A stretch of DNA of 47,641 nt from a bacterium (GTDB lineage: Bacteria; DUMJ01): assembly GCA_026418035.1 (NCBI GenBank), contig JAOACC010000066.1, forward strand, positions 1 through 47,641. The letters run 5' to 3'. How positions within the stretch are numbered: position 1 is the stretch's first letter; every line of letters begins with the position of its first letter. The translations under genes and the position numbers were made by a program. Of this stretch, positions 37,912 to 47,059 are shown one piece after another. A model generated the notes under the pieces. It did no database searches. It saw nothing but the letters and a program-made list of their open reading frames with translations, and was not told the origin of the DNA.

Positions 37912-37948
37912 AAGGCTAGCATCTTCAAACTAAGAAGATGCTAGCCTT
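37912..37948 (-). terminator. Terminator hairpin after hcp
   Basis: Perfect 15-bp stem AAGGCTAGCATCTTC / GAAGATGCTAGCCTT with a 7-nt loop. A T7 run lies 11 nt downstream on the minus strand. Confidence 0.7.
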
Positions 37949-37966
37949 AGATCAAAAAATAAACTT

Positions 37967-39289
37967 TTATCCCTTAAGTATGTTCTTTATATCTTCTTTC
38001 GGTTCAGAGATAATTCTCAGATCATATTGAGACTGTAATACTTTAAGTATCTCCTCATTGACCCATGCAGGTAATATAGGTCCAACATAGATACCTTTAA
38101 TACCCAAAGCAAGTAAACTCCAAAGTATAGCTACCGCCTTCTGCTCCATCCAAGTCAAAACAAGAGTTAAAGGCAACTCATTAACCCCAACACCAAATAG
38201 ATTAGCTAAGGCTTCGGCTAATTCTATAGCCACTATAGAATCGTTACACTGTCCTAAGTCTATCAATCTAGGAACACCATCTATATCTCCAAGTTCTAAA
38301 TCATTTATTCTAAACTTTCCACAGGCAAGTGTAAAAACAATAGTTTCATTTGGAAGTCTTTCAACAAATTCTCTATAGTATTGACTCTTTCTAATTGGAA
38401 CATCACATCCACCCACTAAGAAGAAATGTTTTATTTTTCCTGAATCCACTAGAGACTTAATCTCCTCTGCTAGAGAAAGGATTACAGATTTTGAATATCC
38501 CGTAGTTAGATACTGTCCCTCAGGTTCATCTTCTAGGTCTGGTAAAGCTTTTGCCTTCTCTATTACAGGAGTAAAATCATAACCATCTATATGCCTAACT
38601 CCTGGTAGGCCAGTTGTCCCTGTTGTAAATATCCTATCTTTATAACTCTCTTGAGGAATTAAAACACAATTTGAGGTTCCAAGAATAGCTACCGGATACT
38701 TAGCAAATAATTGCCTCTGATCATGCCATGCCTTACCTAAATTACCTACTAAATGTGAATACTTCTTTAAACCTGGATATCCATGTGCTGGTAAGAGCTC
38801 AGAATGAGTATAGACATTTATTCCAGTTCCCTCTGTTTGTTTTAGAAGCTCCTCTAAAGCCTTAAGTCCGTGACCAGTAACAATTATTCCCTTCCCTTTT
38901 GTAGTCCATGTTCTTACCTTAGTAGGGATAGGTTCTCCGTATCTTTCTATATGAGCATTCTTTAAAAGTTTCATCGTCTTTATATTCATCATACCAGCCT
39001 TGAGTGCTAAAGCAACAAATTTCTCTGGGTCAAAGTTGACATTAGTAAGTGTAGAATAAAAAGCCTCAGTCAAAAAAGCGTCAATCTCCGGATCAGTATA
39101 GCCTAACTCTTTAGCATGATACAAATAAGCAGTTATTCCCTTTATAGCAAAGAGAAGATTATCCTGCAATCTATTTACTGTGGGAACTTTGCCACAGACG
39201 CCCTTGACTGTGCAACCTGCCCCATTTACCGTCCAAGAACATTGGTAACAGAACATATCTAATTTTTCTACGCTAGACACTTTTATCAA
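37967..39289 (-). CDS. hcp: Hybrid-cluster protein (hydroxylamine/NO reductase), short class-III type
   Basis: N-terminal MFCYQC...[10 protein letters not shown] Cys motif. Start is ambiguous: TTG at 39289 is only 1 nt from the SD, GTG at 39280 has 10-nt spacing from AAGGAGG, and ATG at 39256 is also possible. Confidence 0.85.
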
Positions 39290-39324
39290 TCCTCCTTAAC
39301 TCTTTTACCTTTAATTTGATTATA

Positions 39325-41079
39325 TCACTTATGAAACATCTCTCTTATCTCTTGCCATGACTTACCACTTCTAGCTGCCTCTGCTATCAATGGCGCATTT
39401 ATTGCTTTTCCACCATATATGCCAAATTTAAAACTTTCGCAAAACTCTTGATTTACCGCTCCCCCACCACAAGCAAACGGGATATTTATTCCTTCTTCCT
39501 CTAGCCTCTTTGCTATTCTAGGAAAAGCAGACATAGTAGTAGTCATAAGGGCGCTTCCCGTAAGTAGACAAGGCTTATACTTCTTAACCGCCTCTACAAC
39601 TCTTTCTATAGGAACATCTACCCCAAGGTCTATAACTTCATAACCATGGGCTACCAATAATGCTTTAACTATATCTTTTCCTATTGTATGAATATCCCCT
39701 TCTGCAACATGCATAACAATCTTTCCTTTTTTCTCTATAGGTTTTCCCATATATTCTTCACACATCTTTATTCCTATCTGCATAGCATCCGCTGAAAGAA
39801 TAACCTGGGGAAGAAAATACTCTCCTTTATTCCAAAGTTCACTAACAACATTAATACCCTCTACCAATCCCTTATTTATAATCTCTATAGGATCATAAGT
39901 CTCTAAAGCCTTTTTTATTGCGTCTATGACCTTTTGAGTGTTTCCATTTATTACCGCTTCTCTCACTTCCTCTAAAACATCTTTAACAAGTCTTTCCTTA
40001 ACCTTCTCCTCTCCCTTGGATAAATCATATCTAACAAAGATCTGAAAATTACTTTTTCTTTTGTTAGGAATAGTATAAGATGGCTTGGACAAAGAAATCA
40101 TCTGTAATGCCTTAATATTTTCTATAGATGTCTCCAGAGCAAGACTACAACCTGGAGCTAAGAGATCTATACCACTTTCTAAAGCCTTATTTCCTGCCTT
40201 TACTATCTCATTGGCTGTACCTTGCAGTAATAGCCTTACCGGATCAAGATTACCAATTAGAGAGACCTTATCCTTTACTTGGGTTGCAGTAGAAAGGTCT
40301 AATTTGTGGTCTATACTTAGTGCATCCGCTCCACTGTCCGCCATATATTGAATTATAGGAGTTACGTTACCACATATATGTAAAACAGTAACAGCAGATT
40401 TTAATTCTTCGAAAAGCCTCTTATGATATGGTAGAATTAAATCTTTATATATCTTAGGGCTTATCATCTCTGTGCTTGCACTCATATCTTCTACGCATAT
40501 AATATCCGCTCCAGCATTAATTAGCGCCTTGCCATAGATTATTCCTAACTCTAGTGTTATATCAAGAAATCTCTTTAAAGATTGTGTTTCAGAAATAGAG
40601 GCAACTAAAATTTCATTTAATCCCAAAAGATATCCAGCCAAACTAAAAGGTCCTACAATGCCGGCTATAACAGGATATTCTTTCCCAATTTCTCTTGATA
40701 GCTTTTCTACTGCGGATATCACTATAGGAATTCTTCCTTTAGACAGAATATCACTTGGTAATGTAGGTAGAGAGTCTATCTTAAATGGATGGGTTTCCAC
40801 AGTGGGAAGACTATCATATGAGAATCTTATCTTACATCCAAGTGCTTCTGCTTCCACAGTCTGACAAAAGGGGACTCTTACATTATCAAAACCAAGCATT
40901 TCTATAGCAGAAAAAGCAAGTTTGGCCATTTTTTCTGGGCTGGTATGTGCATCTAAAAGACTAATATTAAGCTCTTTCAACTGTTCTTTTGTAATAGTCT
41001 GATTTACACATACTATAGGAACCCTGTCTAGTCTCTTAGAACCTAAAATTGCTGATAAAACCCTCTTCTTGGGAGTCAT
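39325..41079 (-). CDS. Fusion of an MtaA/URO-D-family methyltransferase domain and a corrinoid-binding (MtaC-like) domain, CmuA-like architecture
   Basis: 584 aa. N-terminal half has zinc motifs VLHICGN (HxC) and LAPGCSL. C-terminal half has a B12-binding cap plus a Rossmann domain with DIHTIG (DxHxxG), SALMTTT and CGGGAV. Confidence 0.8.
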   Translation of the reverse strand: MTPKKRVLSAILGSKRLDRVPIVCVNQTITKEQLKELNISLLDAHTSPEKMAKLAFSAIEMLGFDNVRVPFCQTVEAEALGCKIRFSYDSLPTVETHPFKIDSLPTLPSDILSKGRIPIVISAVEKLSREIGKEYPVIAGIVGPFSLAGYLLGLNEILVASISETQSLKRFLDITLELGIIYGKALINAGADIICVEDMSASTEMISPKIYKDLILPYHKRLFEELKSAVTVLHICGNVTPIIQYMADSGADALSIDHKLDLSTATQVKDKVSLIGNLDPVRLLLQGTANEIVKAGNKALESGIDLLAPGCSLALETSIENIKALQMISLSKPSYTIPNKRKSNFQIFVRYDLSKGEEKVKERLVKDVLEEVREAVINGNTQKVIDAIKKALETYDPIEIINKGLVEGINVVSELWNKGEYFLPQVILSADAMQIGIKMCEEYMGKPIEKKGKIVMHVAEGDIHTIGKDIVKALLVAHGYEVIDLGVDVPIERVVEAVKKYKPCLLTGSALMTTTMSAFPRIAKRLEEEGINIPFACGGGAVNQEFCESFKFGIYGGKAINAPLIAEAARSGKSWQEIREMFHK

Positions 41080-42470
41080 TATCTTCCCTCCAAACCATAA
41101 GAGTCTAGACGAAAATTAGAAATTAAGTTCTTATATTTTTTTATACAATCTATAAGAAAATTTTCTTCTGATTCAGGCAAATTGTCTATAACCTTTCCAC
41201 ATTCAGAGAAAACTTCCTTCTCCTTTTGAGATATCAACAAGATATTCTCTTTTATAGATTTTTCTAACTCCTCATAAGCCCTTCTAAGAGCAAAAAGAGC
41301 TCTCTCATAATAATTATTACCCTTTACAAGGCTTGAACCTATATTATAGGCAATCCGAGGAGAAATTACATAAGCTTGAGGGTCTCGAAGTTCATCTGAC
41401 TCAATAAATATATCTCTTAAGATTTTCTCATATCCTAGCTTTAAAGCTGAATTCATTTGCGATACATCATACCCCAAAATCTCAGTAAAAACTGCAGGGG
41501 TAGTTCCTCCAAACATTTCTCCATATTGAACAGCCTCATTACTCCATAAATCACATACAGCAGCAGAGATATTTCCCATAAGGTCTGAGTGTGCACAAGC
41601 ACAACTCTTTCCTTCCATAGAGATAGGGCATCCTGTAATTGCTTTTATAATAGGACCTTCATAGCCACAGTCTTTATCAGGACCTTTTGCTCCAACATCA
41701 AATGCCACTAAAGACCTAGCAGAACCTATTGCCCTTATTAGGGCAGAAAATATGTGAGATAATTCATTACTGGTAAACCCTCCAGCTAAAAACATGGCAG
41801 AATTCGAATGGGCGCAATCTGTATCCCCCCCAGGTATGATATTATATTCCTTAGCTATCATTACTATATCCTTCCAAAGATATTCCATATCAAGAGAACC
41901 TAAAATACCTATAGCAAATAGGCATCCAATTAAATCTTGTCTTGTTACTGCATAGTTAAAAACTTCTTTCCCCCCTGTAGATTCGATAGAGAGAATATCT
42001 GCCCCTGATTCTGCAGATAACCTAAAACTTTCTATCATCTTATCATATTCTCTTGAACCTCTGTAACCATTCTCTGGCTTTCTGATATCTGCTACAGTGA
42101 CTCGAAGAGCGCTTTTAAGACCAAATTTATCATAGTACTCTTTTAACAACCACTTAGTCATATGAGTTATCTCTTTTCCCCAAGTTGGATTATCGGTAAG
42201 CTGAAATACATGCTCAAGCTCCAATACAATCGAAGGAAGTCCTATCTGAATACATCGATCTAAAATATCCTTTGTCATCCTTTCATATTCATGATAGATC
42301 GTATCGAAACTTCTCTCTGTTCCCGGACGAGGATGATATTTAATTTCAGGATGCACCATTCCTCCCCCTATTTCTAAATCAAACCCACATTTTACTGGAT
42401 ATATAGCTTTACCAAAAGTCATCTCCTCCCAAGAGGAGTAAGCCATACTTTTATACATTTTCTTATCCAC
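41079..42470 (-). CDS. mtaB: Methanol:corrinoid methyltransferase MtaB homologue
   Basis: 463 aa, collinear by eye with Methanosarcina MtaB (SMAY...EMTFG, YPVK.G.DLEIG). Contexts of the zinc ligands are conserved: SIESTGGKEVF, DTDCAHSN, GPDKDCGYEG. GTG start. Confidence 0.8.
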   Translation of the reverse strand: MDKKMYKSMAYSSWEEMTFGKAIYPVKCGFDLEIGGGMVHPEIKYHPRPGTERSFDTIYHEYERMTKDILDRCIQIGLPSIVLELEHVFQLTDNPTWGKEITHMTKWLLKEYYDKFGLKSALRVTVADIRKPENGYRGSREYDKMIESFRLSAESGADILSIESTGGKEVFNYAVTRQDLIGCLFAIGILGSLDMEYLWKDIVMIAKEYNIIPGGDTDCAHSNSAMFLAGGFTSNELSHIFSALIRAIGSARSLVAFDVGAKGPDKDCGYEGPIIKAITGCPISMEGKSCACAHSDLMGNISAAVCDLWSNEAVQYGEMFGGTTPAVFTEILGYDVSQMNSALKLGYEKILRDIFIESDELRDPQAYVISPRIAYNIGSSLVKGNNYYERALFALRRAYEELEKSIKENILLISQKEKEVFSECGKVIDNLPESEENFLIDCIKKYKNLISNFRLDSYGLEGR

Positions 42471-42924
42471 CTGCCCTCTTAGATATTTTATTTATCCCTT
42501 CTAATAAAACCTCCCAAGCAAGTAATACACATTTAATCCGAACAGGAAGTCTTCTTATACCTTCAAAAGCTAAAAGGTCACCCAAATCTTCGGTAAAATC
42601 TTCCTTTCCTTCCATTATTCTTTTAAATCTAATAATTAAACTCCTTATATCCTCAATAGATTTACCCTTAACTAACTCTGTCATAATTGATGCAGAGGCT
42701 TGGCTTATAGCACAACCTACCCCGGTAAATTTTATGTCTTCAAGCTTATCATCCTCTACCAGAAACTGGATGTAAATAGCATCACCACAGATAGGATTTT
42801 CACCATCAACTTTACATAAAGGATTTATTCCCTCAGAAGAATGAGCGTAAGGAATCTCTCCATAATTTCTTGGATTTTGATAGTGTTCCAAAATAACTTC
42901 TTTATATATTTCCTCAAGTTCCAT
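42463..42924 (-). CDS. sufU: SUF-type Fe-S scaffold/sulfur acceptor SufU (NifU N-terminal-like)
   Basis: 153 aa with conserved Cys contexts NPICGD, GVGCAIS and IKCVLL. Confidence 0.85.
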   Translation of the reverse strand: MELEEIYKEVILEHYQNPRNYGEIPYAHSSEGINPLCKVDGENPICGDAIYIQFLVEDDKLEDIKFTGVGCAISQASASIMTELVKGKSIEDIRSLIIRFKRIMEGKEDFTEDLGDLLAFEGIRRLPVRIKCVLLAWEVLLEGINKISKRAGG

Positions 42925-44146
42925 AACTAAAAATCTTCTCCACTTTTTCTAAACTTTTTATTAGACAATCTATCTCCTCTTTAGTGTTATAAACATATAG
43001 AGAAACTCTACAAGAAGCTGAGATTCCTAGTGCATCATGTAAAGGTTGAGCACAATGGTGCCCTGCTCTTATAGCTATACCATTTTGATCTAGAATAGTT
43101 GCTACATCATGAGGATGAACTTTTTTGTAATTAAATGAGATGATGCTACTTCTTAAATTTATATCCTTAGGACCATATATTGTAATTCCATCTAAACTAG
43201 ATAGCATTTCCAAAGCATATGCAGTTAATATCTTTTCATGTTTAAATACTTCATCCATCCCTAAATTATTTAAATAATCTATAGCCTCACCAAAACCTAT
43301 AACCCCAGCTATGTTAGGAGTTCCTCCTTCAAATCTATATGGGATATCTGCCCATATGGAATCAAATATCGAAACTCTTTTTATCATCTCTCCTCCACCT
43401 AATAGAGGCTCCATTTCTTCTAATATTTCCCTCTTACTATATAAAATCCCTATACCGGTAGGCCCAAGCATCTTATGTGCAGAAAAAGCTAAAAAATCTA
43501 CATCCAAGTTCTTCACATTAGTTGGGATGGAAGGAATCCCTTGTGCTCCATCAATTAAAACCTTAGCTCTAATATTATGGGCTATTTTTACTATTTCACC
43601 TATAGGGTTTATAGTACCAAGAACATTACTTACATAGGTTATACTGATAAGTTTTGTATCTTCTGAGATAGAAGAATAAAAAGAATCCATGTCTAATGTG
43701 CCATCATCCCTTAAGGGAATAAATTTCAACTTAATTCCTCTTTCTCTTGCCAATATCTGCCAAGGGACTATATTACTGTGATGTTCCATAATCGTAAGTA
43801 TTACTTCATCACCATCTCTAAGAAATTTTCTTCCCCATCCATATGCTACTAAATTTATAGCCTCAGTAGTTCCTTTGGTAAATACTATACAGGAAGACTC
43901 TTCTGCTCCAATAAAATCAGCCACTTTTTTTCTTATTCTTTCATACTCTTGTGTGGCTATAGCCCCTAATGTATAAACTCCTCTATGCACATTAGCATTG
44001 TAATGTTTATAGTAATCAGATGTAGCATTTATAACAGAGAGAGGTTTCTGAGTAGTCGCTGCATTATCAAGATATACTAGTTTTTTCCCATTTATTTTCT
44101 CTTTAAGTATTGGGAAATCATTTCTAATTTTATATACATCATACAT
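42914..44146 (-). CDS. sufS: Cysteine desulfurase SufS
   Basis: 410 aa, class-V aminotransferase. PLP-Lys context FSAHKMLGPTG and catalytic Cys RAGHHCAQP. Confidence 0.9.
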   Translation of the reverse strand: MYDVYKIRNDFPILKEKINGKKLVYLDNAATTQKPLSVINATSDYYKHYNANVHRGVYTLGAIATQEYERIRKKVADFIGAEESSCIVFTKGTTEAINLVAYGWGRKFLRDGDEVILTIMEHHSNIVPWQILARERGIKLKFIPLRDDGTLDMDSFYSSISEDTKLISITYVSNVLGTINPIGEIVKIAHNIRAKVLIDGAQGIPSIPTNVKNLDVDFLAFSAHKMLGPTGIGILYSKREILEEMEPLLGGGEMIKRVSIFDSIWADIPYRFEGGTPNIAGVIGFGEAIDYLNNLGMDEVFKHEKILTAYALEMLSSLDGITIYGPKDINLRSSIISFNYKKVHPHDVATILDQNGIAIRAGHHCAQPLHDALGISASCRVSLYVYNTKEEIDCLIKSLEKVEKIFSYGT

Positions 44147-44152
44147 ATTTAA

Positions 44153-44935
44153 TTACTCTCCCTGAAAAATATTCATTAACTTCTCTGTAATGAAATCCCT
44201 TAAAAAAGGAGCTTCAATAAGGGATTCATCTAACAAATCTTGTAAAAAGGCTACTGATAATATTTTAATAGCTGTCCTTTCTTCTATTCCTCTACTCTCA
44301 ATATAGAAAAGATCTTCATCATTAATTCCTCTTACTACTGAACCATGTGAACATTTCTCTATATTATCATTTTCTATCTCGAGGATAGGAACACTTTCCA
44401 CAGTTGGACCATCCCCTATAACAAGGGTTCTATTTACTTGGGAGGCAGATACTTTTTCTGCTATTTTCCCAATGTTTATAGCTCCTTTAAAAGATAGTTT
44501 AGCTTCGTTTTTCAATATCCCTTTAACAACTAGATTACTTTTACTAAAAGGGGCCAGATGTCTTAGAAATACATTTAAGTTAAAATTCTCCTCCCCTAGT
44601 AGTACATATACAGTCTTAATATCAACATCAGTCTTTTTTTCAAGGAGCTCAACCTTTATATTCACTGAAAAGCTTTGTCCTAAGTTTAAAAGAAAGACTT
44701 TACAGAAGCTATTCTCTCCCAGATAAATAGAAACATCAAAATCTCCTTCAATTTCTGAATCTATTATCCAAATTAATTTTAAAGAAGCATTTTTATCTAC
44801 GTATATGTCTAAGGGCATAAATCTTTTCTCTAGATTTGATTCATAAAAATATGTTACCTCATGACCTTCATCTATAACTAAAATATGACTATTAGTGTTA
44901 AATCTAAGAAAAACCTCATTCCTTGGTAAAATCAT
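44153..44935 (-). CDS. sufD: SufD (short form)
   Basis: 260 aa. C-terminal UPF0051 motif [23 protein letters not shown]. Confidence 0.75.
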
Positions 44936-46308
44936 CCTATATCTCCCCTTAACTGCAATCTTATAAGTCTGTTAAGCTCTACTGCATATTCAAAAGGTAA
45001 TTCCTTAGAGATTGGTTCTATAAAGCCTCTAACAATAAGAGCACTTGCCTCATCTTTGGGTAGTCCCCTACTTTCCAAATAAAACAGTTGTTCATCGTCT
45101 ATCTTACTTACAGAAGCCTCATGAGATAAAGAGGTATTACTATTTTCTATTTTTATTATTGGATAGGTGTCTGATCTAGATTGATTATCGAGTAAAAGAG
45201 TATCACATCTCAAACTAACATTAGATTTAGTAGCGCAGGGGTCTACATATACTAATCCCCTGTAACTATTTCTTCCTCCATCCTTGCTTATAGATTTACT
45301 AGTGATTCGGCTAAAGGTATATGGAGCTAAATGTAAAACCTTTGCCCCAACATCTTGAAACTGCCCTTTGCCTGCATATGCTATACTAAGTAATTCTGCC
45401 TTAGAACCTTTACCACGCATATAAACAGAGGGATACTTCATAGTAACTTTACTTCCTAGATTACCATCTATCCATTCAACGATAGCTTCATCATAAGCAA
45501 CTGCTCTTTTGGTAACAAGATTATAGACATTATAGGACCAATTTTGAATAGTTGTATACCTTACCCTAGCTCCTTTCTTTACAACAACCTCTACGACAGC
45601 GCTATGAAGAGAATATGTAGAATATATGGGAGCAGTACAACCCTCTATATAATGTACATAGCTTCCAGGTTCTGCTATAATAAGAGTCCTCTCAAACTGT
45701 CCCATGTTCTGCGAATTTATCCTAAAATATGCCTGGAGAGGAATCTCTACAGAAACACCTTCTGGTATATAAATAAAGCTTCCTCCGCTCCAAACTGCGC
45801 TGTTGAGAGCAGAAAACTTATTATCAGAAGGAGAAACTACAGTGCCGATATATTCTCTAACAAGTTCCGGATACTCTTTCACAGCGGTATCTGTATCTAC
45901 AAATATTACTCCCTTCTTTTTCCAACTTTCCTTCAGCTTATGATAAACCATCTCTGATTCATACTGAGCAGATAAACCCGCTAACAATCTTCTTTCAGCT
46001 TCCGGGATGCCTAATCTTTCAAAAGTATTCCTTATATACTCTGGGACATCCTCCCAAGAAGAACTCTTTCTATCTGACGGTTTTACATAATAAACTATAT
46101 CATCAAAGTTTAGATCAGATAGGTCTGGTCCCCAGCTAGGAAGATTCTTTTTAAGAAAAATTTCATACGCATTTAGACGAAATTTACGCATCCATTCTGG
46201 TTCCATTTTTAACCAGGATATCTCCTCAACTATTTCTTTAGAGAGTCCCTTAGTTAATCTAAACACATAATTTTCTGGATCTTTGAATCCATACTTATAT
46301 CTCGTCAT
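44932..46308 (-). CDS. sufB: SufB
   Basis: 458 aa with canonical SufB sequence ([34 protein letters not shown]). Confidence 0.93.
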
Positions 46309-47059
46309 GCTCTCTCCTCTTCTCTAATGTCTCATATCCTTCTCTTTCTATTAAATCTATGAGCTCATATCCACCAGAGGCAAGTATCTTACCATCAAAC
46401 ATTACAAATATATTGTCAGGTTTTACGTAGTCTAAAAATCTTTGATAGTGGGTGATTATAAGAATGGTCTTATCTTCGTTAAAAAAGTTATTAATTGTAT
46501 TAGAAACTATCTTCATAGCATCTATATCTAATCCTGAATCTATCTCATCTAGTATTACTAACTCAGGATTAACAATTACCATTTGTAAGACTTCACTTTT
46601 TTTCTTTTCACCACCGCTAAGACCTTCATTCAAATAACGGCTAATAAATTTTTCGTTAAGATCAAGGACTTCTAATTTAGATTTAAGGAATTTACTAAAT
46701 TCCATAGGAGATTTCCTATCATCAACTCTTGTATTAAAAATTAATCTCAAAAAGTTAAAAAGAGTAATTCCAGAAATCTCTATTGGATATTGAAAAGCCA
46801 AAAATATCCCTCTTTGCGCTCTTTCTGAAGGTGTAAGATTAGTTATATTCTCCCCATTAAAGATTATTTCTCCCCTAGAGACTTTAAACCTTGGATGTCC
46901 CATAATAGTATATGCTAAGGAACTCTTTCCTGCACCATTGGGTCCCATAAGTGCATAAATCCTTCCTCTCTTCAATTGAAGATTTACCCCTTTCAAAATT
47001 TCTTTTTGCTCTACCTCTGTATGTAAATTCTTTAACTCAAGAATTACTCCTCTACCCAT
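46295..47059 (-). CDS. sufC: SufC ATPase
   Basis: 254 aa. Walker [10 protein letters not shown], signature LSGGEKKK, Walker [11 protein letters not shown]. Confidence 0.93.

Follow-up and report, generated by a model that had tools for sequence, protein, structure and literature searches.

Corrinoid-dependent methanol methyltransferases are usually studied as entries to methanogenesis and acetogenesis. In the MtaABC system of Methanosarcina (PDB 2I2X and 4AY7), MtaC is a separate protein that is encoded beside mtaB in the order mtaC-mtaB, and mtaA lies elsewhere. The bacterial mtaB-mtaC-mtaA operons of Bacillota, such as Desku_0050-60 of Desulfofundulus kuznetsovii, which is induced by methanol and cobalt (PMC5770442), draw on the same three families and also keep them as separate genes, with mtaA near mtaB-mtaC. 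A methyltransferase domain and a corrinoid domain within one chain are known from CmuA of Methylorubrum extorquens CM4 (pCMU01), whose URO-D domain loads the corrinoid, whereas the pterin-type protein CmuB unloads it to tetrahydrofolate (THF; PMC13222342). MtsD, MtsF (CmtA) and MtsH of M. acetivorans likewise join a corrinoid domain and an MtaA-like methyltransferase, and handle methyl-sulfur compounds or coenzyme M (CoM; PMC7374477; PMC10762971). Finally, the Type 1 mlp clusters of bacteria, which were proposed to act on methyl-sulfur or methyl-selenium compounds (Kountz and Balskus, PMC10418091), combine soluble CoM methyltransferase homologues carrying a His-Cys-Cys site with a corrinoid protein and a RACo/Ram activase, but no THF methylase. 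Here, we analysed a stretch of 47,641 nucleotides from a bacterial metagenome-assembled genome (MAG; contig JAOACC010000066.1 of assembly GCA_026418035.1; the whole stretch is hereafter called the window), in which a gene for an MtaB homologue is directly followed by a gene that fuses MtaA-like and MtaC-like domains. We propose, giving the statement as a whole an even chance, that the two genes form a self-contained corrinoid-dependent methanol methyl-transfer module that unloads its methyl group to a thiol-type acceptor. The component families are already known and such fusion proteins carry the NCBI label 'MtaA/CmuA family methyltransferase', but an MtaA-MtaC fusion paired with MtaB appears to be undescribed, as full-text literature searches returned no description of one. 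The two genes and the parts of the fusion are as follows:

41079-42470, minus strand: mtaB, methanol:corrinoid methyltransferase homologue, 463 aa from GTG 42470
39325-41079, minus strand: mtaA-mtaC fusion gene, 584 aa, single uninterrupted frame
40084-41079, minus strand: MtaA-like URO-D (TIM-barrel) domain, aa 1-332, with His234-x-Cys236 ... Cys311
39985-40083, minus strand: inter-domain linker, aa 333-365, predicted to be disordered
39325-39984, minus strand: MtaC-like corrinoid domain (helical cap and Rossmann fold), aa 366-584, with D462-x-H464-x-x-G467, SALMTTT and GGG

The first gene, 41079-42470(-), encodes a full-length MtaB and is the only MtaB-family gene in the host genome. Its product matches the Pfam family MtaB (PF12176) at 640.7 bits (cut-off 25), with residues 4-459 covering profile positions 2-460 of 460, and can be aligned end to end with M. 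barkeri MtaB (PDB 2I2X_A, E 8e-143). An earlier reading of the DNA alone (the sequence-only reading) had named the protein MtaB, collinear with the Methanosarcina enzyme and with intact contexts for the Glu/Cys/Cys zinc ligands, and these alignments bear it out. Counted along the alignment, the motifs SIES, DTDC and DKDC fall on E164, C220 and C269 of 2I2X_A, which are reportedly the zinc ligands of the M. barkeri enzyme (Hagemeier et al. 2006). The corresponding residues E163, C219 and C268 are invariant in 191/191 aligned family sequences, a set that spans methanogens, bacteria and one divergent paralogue. Methanol would presumably be the methyl donor of this enzyme. The protein is ~46-49% identical to Methanosarcina MtaB and reaches 626.4 bits against the NCBIfam model MtaB_Meth (NF040651), under the methanogen equivalog cut-off of 720.

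The second gene, 39325-41079(-), encodes a single protein, in which an MtaA-like URO-D domain is joined through a predicted disordered linker of 33 residues to a complete corrinoid domain of the MtaC type. The sequence-only reading had described a URO-D/MtaA-family domain fused to a B12 domain, with the methyltransferase N-terminal and the corrinoid domain C-terminal, and the Pfam matches agree with it in both composition and order (URO-D 2-325, B12-binding_2 368-440 and B12-binding 452-545). For the N-terminal half, MtaA-type models rank first in NCBIfam (PRK06252, 339.9 bits, cut-off 244; TIGR01463, 304.7 bits, cut-off 235.4), and MtaA_Meth (NF040654) is matched at 311.8 bits, under its cut-off of 400. 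For the C-terminal half, the MtaC profiles NF040655 and NF040669 rank first, scoring 268 and 272 bits (cut-offs 420 and 450), so that the methanogen equivalog cut-offs are missed by all three modules; the match nevertheless runs almost end to end (positions 7-252 of 253), and this half clears TIGR02370 (220.1 bits versus a cut-off of 215.3). The motifs named earlier could likewise be placed on known structures: VLHICGN and LAPGCSL align with identical motifs in M. mazei MtaA (4AY7, E 7.7e-68), and EGDIHTIGK, SALMTTT and ACGGGAV align with M. barkeri MtaC (2I2X_B, E 3.4e-64). Across 24 fused relatives, H234, C236, C311, D462, H464 and G467 are invariant. Identity to Methanosarcina is 37-38% for the MtaA half and 44-50% for the MtaC half. 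Hence, as in MtaABC, three collinear and complete catalytic modules are present, which retain the Glu/Cys/Cys of MtaB, the DxHxxG of MtaC and the His-x-Cys...Cys of MtaA. In an AlphaFold2 model of the fusion (predicted local distance difference test score (pLDDT) 87.4, predicted TM-score 0.83), two confident domains are joined by one disordered stretch, 333-365, the sole segment with a pLDDT <50. The modelled N-domain superposes on 4AY7 with a Foldseek TM-score of 0.93 and a root-mean-square deviation of 1.6 A, and the modelled C-domain on 2I2X_B with a TM-score of 0.72 at 50% identity.

A phylogeny, which had been named as a check on these assignments, was built from 91 URO-D domains. All fused N-domains except that of P0036, a lone fused protein which groups with methanogen sequences, is 34% identical and is remote from the clade of the window, form one clade with standalone bacterial MtaA-like proteins (56 rows, support 92 in the Shimodaira-Hasegawa-like approximate likelihood-ratio test (SH-aLRT)). 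The standalone proteins come from Bacillota, Desulfobacterota, Chloroflexota and one Asgard MAG, and include the D. kuznetsovii MtaA. This bacterial MtaA clade adjoins the methanogen MtaA and MtbA clades and does not lie inside the former. The pattern R116/H234/C236/C311 is present in 73/91 of the aligned sequences. CmuA of pCMU01 sits on a long branch far outside the MtaA/MtbA/fusion clades and is 22.9-24% identical to the fusion. The description of the fusion as CmuA-like thus holds for the domain order only, which is collinear over 96% of the query; the His-Cys-Cys site is kept in both proteins. Homology of the fusion to CmuA was rejected, and the likeness is one of convergent architecture. 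In the MtaB tree, fusion-partnered MtaBs stand mostly together (13 rows, SH-aLRT support 89), apart from an unfused bacterial clade (support 99) and from the methanogen clade (95), and the nearest cultured MtaB is that of D. kuznetsovii with 55% identity.

Fused forms fall into at least six subclades of the URO-D tree, where they are interleaved with standalone forms. A single origin of all fused forms was rejected (approximately unbiased test, p 2e-5, for a group that was defined after the tree had been seen), and fusion or fission therefore occurred more than once. In Desulfobacterota, mtaA and mtaC are adjacent and in that order, yet separate genes, a plausible precursor of the fusion; apparent 'fusions' in the Desulfobacterota loci L030-L041 were rejected on this ground. 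A protein search returned ~35 full-length fusion relatives with 33-80% identity, all with the three domains, and the few with a named source are all bacterial MAGs ('bacterium', 'Armatimonadota bacterium'). An exhaustive search of 1.84 billion cluster representatives yielded only about nine clusters of collinear full-length relatives at E <1e-90, together with weaker-scoring fusions in both domain orders.

The two genes are translationally coupled. The stop codon of mtaB (TAA) and the start codon of the fusion gene (ATG) overlap in the sequence TAATG, with a Shine-Dalgarno-like GGAGG a few nucleotides upstream. The pairing is also conserved, as mtaB lies upstream of the fusion on the same strand in 12/12 fused loci examined (the window, G004, G006, L022, L024, L026, L028, L029, L132, L133, L134 and L135), directly so except for two small genes that intervene in L024. 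In L133, the two genes stand alone, without any other methyl-related gene in the vicinity. As the domain identities, the coupling and the existence of such bare two-gene versions point in the same direction, they support a self-contained relay of two proteins, as had been suggested from the sequence. A RACo-type activase adjoins the module in L029, L132, L134 and L135, and additional genes for URO-D and small corrinoid proteins often lie close by. No gene for a pterin-binding protein, a pterin-type methyltransferase or MtrH was found beside any fused locus examined. The order mtaB followed by mtaA~C thus differs from that in Methanosarcina, and the module differs from the Type 1 mlp clusters, in which two or three Mlp genes (~30% identity to MtaA/MtbA) and the corrinoid protein are all separate and MtaB is absent, whereas the fusion here belongs to the bacterial MtaA clade and is paired with MtaB. 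It also differs from MtsD, MtsF and MtsH, which act without an MtaB partner, a comparison made by description.

Based on these observations, we propose the following mechanism. A RACo-type activase, of which the host encodes one on contig C95, would reduce the corrinoid of the C-terminal MtaC domain to Co(I). The zinc-dependent MtaB would then move the methyl group of methanol to Co(I), yielding methyl-Co(III). In the next step, the corrinoid domain could swing on its ~33-residue flexible tether to the MtaA-like domain of its own chain, the His-Cys-Cys zinc site of which would activate a soft nucleophile to take the methyl group. This nucleophile is most likely a small thiol, or else sulfide or selenide. 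The affinity to MtaA and the His-Cys-Cys site suggest that unloading, and not loading, of the corrinoid is the task of the URO-D domain, in contrast to CmuA; the loader here would be MtaB, and no CmuB-like gene is linked to the module. With its tethered carrier, the fusion is a natural instance of the corrinoid-shuttling design that MetH and CmuA also represent.

Which acceptor takes the methyl group had been left open by the sequence-only reading, and the inventory of the host genome justifies this caution, as it revealed no route to CoM and, as the only pterin-type methyltransferase, the folate module of a truncated MetH. The window corresponds to contig C107 of a MAG of 2.13 Mb in 168 contigs (97.5% complete, 2.5% estimated contamination). 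Compared over its full length, the RpoB of this MAG shares no more than 62-64% identity with that of any named organism, all of them thermophilic or anaerobic Bacillota. Within the genome collection, the lineage comprises one family with seven species, and all other genomes share only the domain. MCR alpha and ComA were not found in the 97.5%-complete genome (the bacterial CoM pathway was not searched), and methanogenesis or CoM as a sink was rejected for this reason, which makes CoM itself an unlikely acceptor in this bacterial host. CdhC/acetyl-CoA synthase was not found in the genome either, which led us to reject acetogenesis as the sink, and neither was an MtrH-type methylcorrinoid:pterin methyltransferase, so that unloading as in the D. 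kuznetsovii operon was also rejected. As the host is without methanogenesis and without the Wood-Ljungdahl pathway's carbonyl branch, the likely role of the module is in methyl salvage or sulfur-linked methylation and not in energy metabolism. Pectin was considered as an endogenous source of methanol and rejected, as none of the 7 family genomes contains a pectinesterase.

In the UroD superfamily, a His-Cys-Cys site marks S/Se-methyltransferases, and carboxylates mark O-methyltransferases and O-demethylases (PMC10418091). The zinc site of the fusion therefore favours a thiol-type acceptor. Several points weigh against this. No acceptor thiol was identified, and CmuA keeps His-Cys-Cys yet loads from chloromethane, so that the triad is no proof of a thiol acceptor. 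In addition, methyl-THF is the assumed product of the related D. kuznetsovii operon (PMC5770442), MTHFR, FolD and FTHFS of the host could process methyl-THF, and absences from a MAG of 168 contigs are not proof. The MTHFR of the host is part of a YitJ-type fusion with a homocysteine methyltransferase. One might thus speculate that THF is the acceptor and that the MtaA-like domain acts as a methylcobamide:THF methyltransferase, the methyl-THF being passed on to formate (with ATP) or to C1 biosynthesis. The D. kuznetsovii operon, which has URO-D-type MtaA genes, is drawn as feeding methyl-THF (PMC5770442), and in acetyl-CoA synthase-bearing Bacillota and Desulfobacterota, standalone relatives of the N-domain are neighbours of mtaB/mtaC. 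We consider this explanation unlikely, though still a real contender. No URO-D-family enzyme shown to methylate THF turned up; the characterised methylcorrinoid:THF methyltransferases (methyltransferase II, MTII), including the acetogen 'MtaA', are relatives of AcsE/MetH (PMC13222342) and therefore pterin-binding and not URO-D proteins, and the THF step in D. kuznetsovii could be carried out by the MtrH-like gene of its operon (PMC10907483). Moreover, acetyl-CoA synthase and MtrH are missing in 5/5 fusion-bearing genomes searched (G000, which is the host, G004, G006 and the genomes of L028 and L029), whereas the comparators with an unfused mtaA have acetyl-CoA synthase in 5/5 and an MtrH-like gene in 4/5 cases; with five genomes on each side, and three of the fused ones from one family, this contrast is a lead and not a statistic. 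The thiol type of the zinc site (PMC10418091) likewise speaks against THF.

The only pterin-binding domain of the host is found in a 571-aa protein (C145 4024-5739 (+), equivalent to L002 502-2217), which matches residues 1-592 of MetH only and thus comprises the homocysteine and folate modules without a cobalamin or activation domain. As MetE was not found in any of the 7 family genomes, methionine synthesis apparently depends on a corrinoid protein that acts in trans (a split MetH). This raises the possibility that the fusion works in the manner of CmuA: the URO-D domain would be a second loader, for a methyl-thioether, a methyl-selenide or a halomethane, MtaB would load the same corrinoid, and unloading would fall in trans to another protein, possibly the truncated MetH of C145 through its folate or homocysteine module. 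With an equal domain order and the same His-Cys-Cys site, CmuA is a methyltransferase I and corrinoid protein with a separate MTII (PMC13222342), and the fused MtsD, MtsF and MtsH use methyl sulfides (PMC7374477; PMC10762971). This seems quite improbable to us, as the N-domain is far closer to MtaA than to CmuA (23-24% identity) and none of the fused loci has an MTII gene linked to it. In addition, the host has a single standalone corrinoid protein of 212 aa, whose gene lies between two URO-D genes, and congeners that lack the module keep this protein, which would be able to serve the split MetH. Thiol methylation by methyl-Co(III) is, furthermore, strongly favoured thermodynamically (textbook value for MtaA).

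If the acceptor is indeed a thiol, this would be a new fate for methanol in anoxic habitats, and the routine label 'methylcobamide:CoM methyltransferase' would need correction in non-methanogens. More generally, we find here a complete MtaB/MtaC/MtaA set, compacted to two proteins, in small-genome bacteria where neither methanogenesis nor acetogenesis was found. The module therefore isolates the question of which compound the bacterial URO-D-type 'MtaA' proteins methylate, and two proteins with one activase are about the simplest version in which it could be tested by reconstitution.

The pair is part of a longer run of co-oriented genes, 37912-47059 (-), in which sufC-sufB-sufD-sufS-sufU, mtaB, the fusion gene and hcp follow each other with overlapping or very short junctions and which ends in a strong hairpin. 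The features that flank the pair are as follows:

42463-42924, minus strand: sufU (NifU_N scaffold, Pfam NifU_N 92 bits), which ends the sufCBD-sufS-sufU cluster and lies directly upstream of mtaB
37967-39289, minus strand: hcp (hybrid-cluster protein, TIGR01703 629 bits), 36 nt downstream of the fusion, final gene before the terminator
37912-37948, minus strand: terminator-like hairpin with a 15-bp stem and then a T-rich tail, just 3' of hcp, from a consensus scan only

For mtaB, ATG 42458 is as good a start as GTG 42470 or better. The TAA stop of sufU lies 4 nt ahead of the former and is overlapped by the latter, so that mtaB is continuous with sufCBD-sufS-sufU without a gap. Neither a cobalamin riboswitch nor any other Rfam element was detected near mtaB or the fusion gene, and a promoter scan of the locus performed no better than on shuffled sequence. 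The same suf...-mtaB-fusion-hcp order is found in G004 (82-89% identity), and in the sister-genus genome G006, the order mtaB-fusion-hcp is accompanied by a sufC fragment next to mtaB, with ~97 residues at the start of mtaB unmatched. Thus, hcp adjoins the fusion in these two genomes, but not in the more distant fused loci. Within the genus, the fusion is present in 2/6 species, the host and G004 (82% identity), and that of G006 is 66% identical. Such a patchy distribution, in a MAG with 2.5% estimated contamination, could also be produced if the pair were a remnant that is decaying or no longer active, or if it had come from a methanogen that co-occurs with the host, through an artefact of assembly or binning. 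This explanation is largely refuted and hardly credible, as the frames are intact, every catalytic residue is kept, the G+C of the pair equals that of the flanking DNA, and the closest relatives are bacterial and not from methanogens. Furthermore, suf lies on one side of the pair and hcp/tldD on the other within a contig of 47.6 kb, and the context in G004 is alike at 82-89% identity.

Sulfur genes stand beside the module in several loci: sufS-sufU in the window and G004, nifS-nadA-nifU in L022, mnmA-nadA in L028 and a NIR_SIR sulfite-reductase-like gene in L026. In addition, a divergent orphan MtaB-like gene (38-44% identity) is located directly beside the suf operon, in two different arrangements, in three congeners without the fusion (L130 7272-8654 of G003:C25, L126 5549-6922 of G001 and L128 3-887 of G005), and the full-length gene of G003 retains the Glu/Cys/Cys residues. 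MtaB genes and sulfur-mobilisation genes are thus recurrently linked. We speculate that the module might be a folate-independent, methanol-driven S-methylase of sulfur assimilation, which methylates homocysteine directly, or converts sulfide or persulfide to methanethiol for methionine synthesis. This more specific idea is a long shot. It is hinted at by the recurrence of cysteine-desulfurase and sulfur-relay genes beside the module, by the orphan MtaB-like genes beside the suf operon in the three congeners, and by a family in which MetE was not found and MetH is cut to its homocysteine and folate modules. If it were true, methanol would be a direct methyl source for methionine in heterotrophs without MetE or a complete MetH.

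Two further fused loci contain additional genes of interest. In L024 (9805-11164), which belongs to another uncultured bacterium and lies on a contig of 1.6 Mb, the genes after the fusion encode a stand-alone MetH activation domain (Met_synt_B12, 247 aa) and a corrinoid protein of 209 aa; one of the two small genes between mtaB and the fusion has a weak DUF4258 match and the other is without a family match. L134 (10108-11481), a fused locus from another metagenome, lies ~2 kb from a gene for MtmB (monomethylamine methyltransferase), which suggests that several methyl donors may share one neighbourhood there.

The URO-D family is expanded in the host, with matches at 22 loci (for example C32 3580-5715, C31, C18, C40 and C88), as compared to only two corrinoid carriers and one activase in the 2.1-Mb genome. 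Five of the more distant paralogues were aligned, and in these Asp, Thr, Asn, Gly or His replaces at least one of the His-Cys-Cys ligands, a pattern that has been reported for O-demethylases. A further host protein, encoded at C153 641-2002 (+) (L010), combines an MtaA/CmuA-like methyltransferase (TIGR01463, 192 bits) with a C-terminal thioredoxin-like domain that matches the model 'HUIPC motif thioredoxin-like (seleno)protein'. This protein has Phe at the site of the zinc-binding His and keeps both Cys residues, and similar frames of 456-471 aa are present in four congeners.

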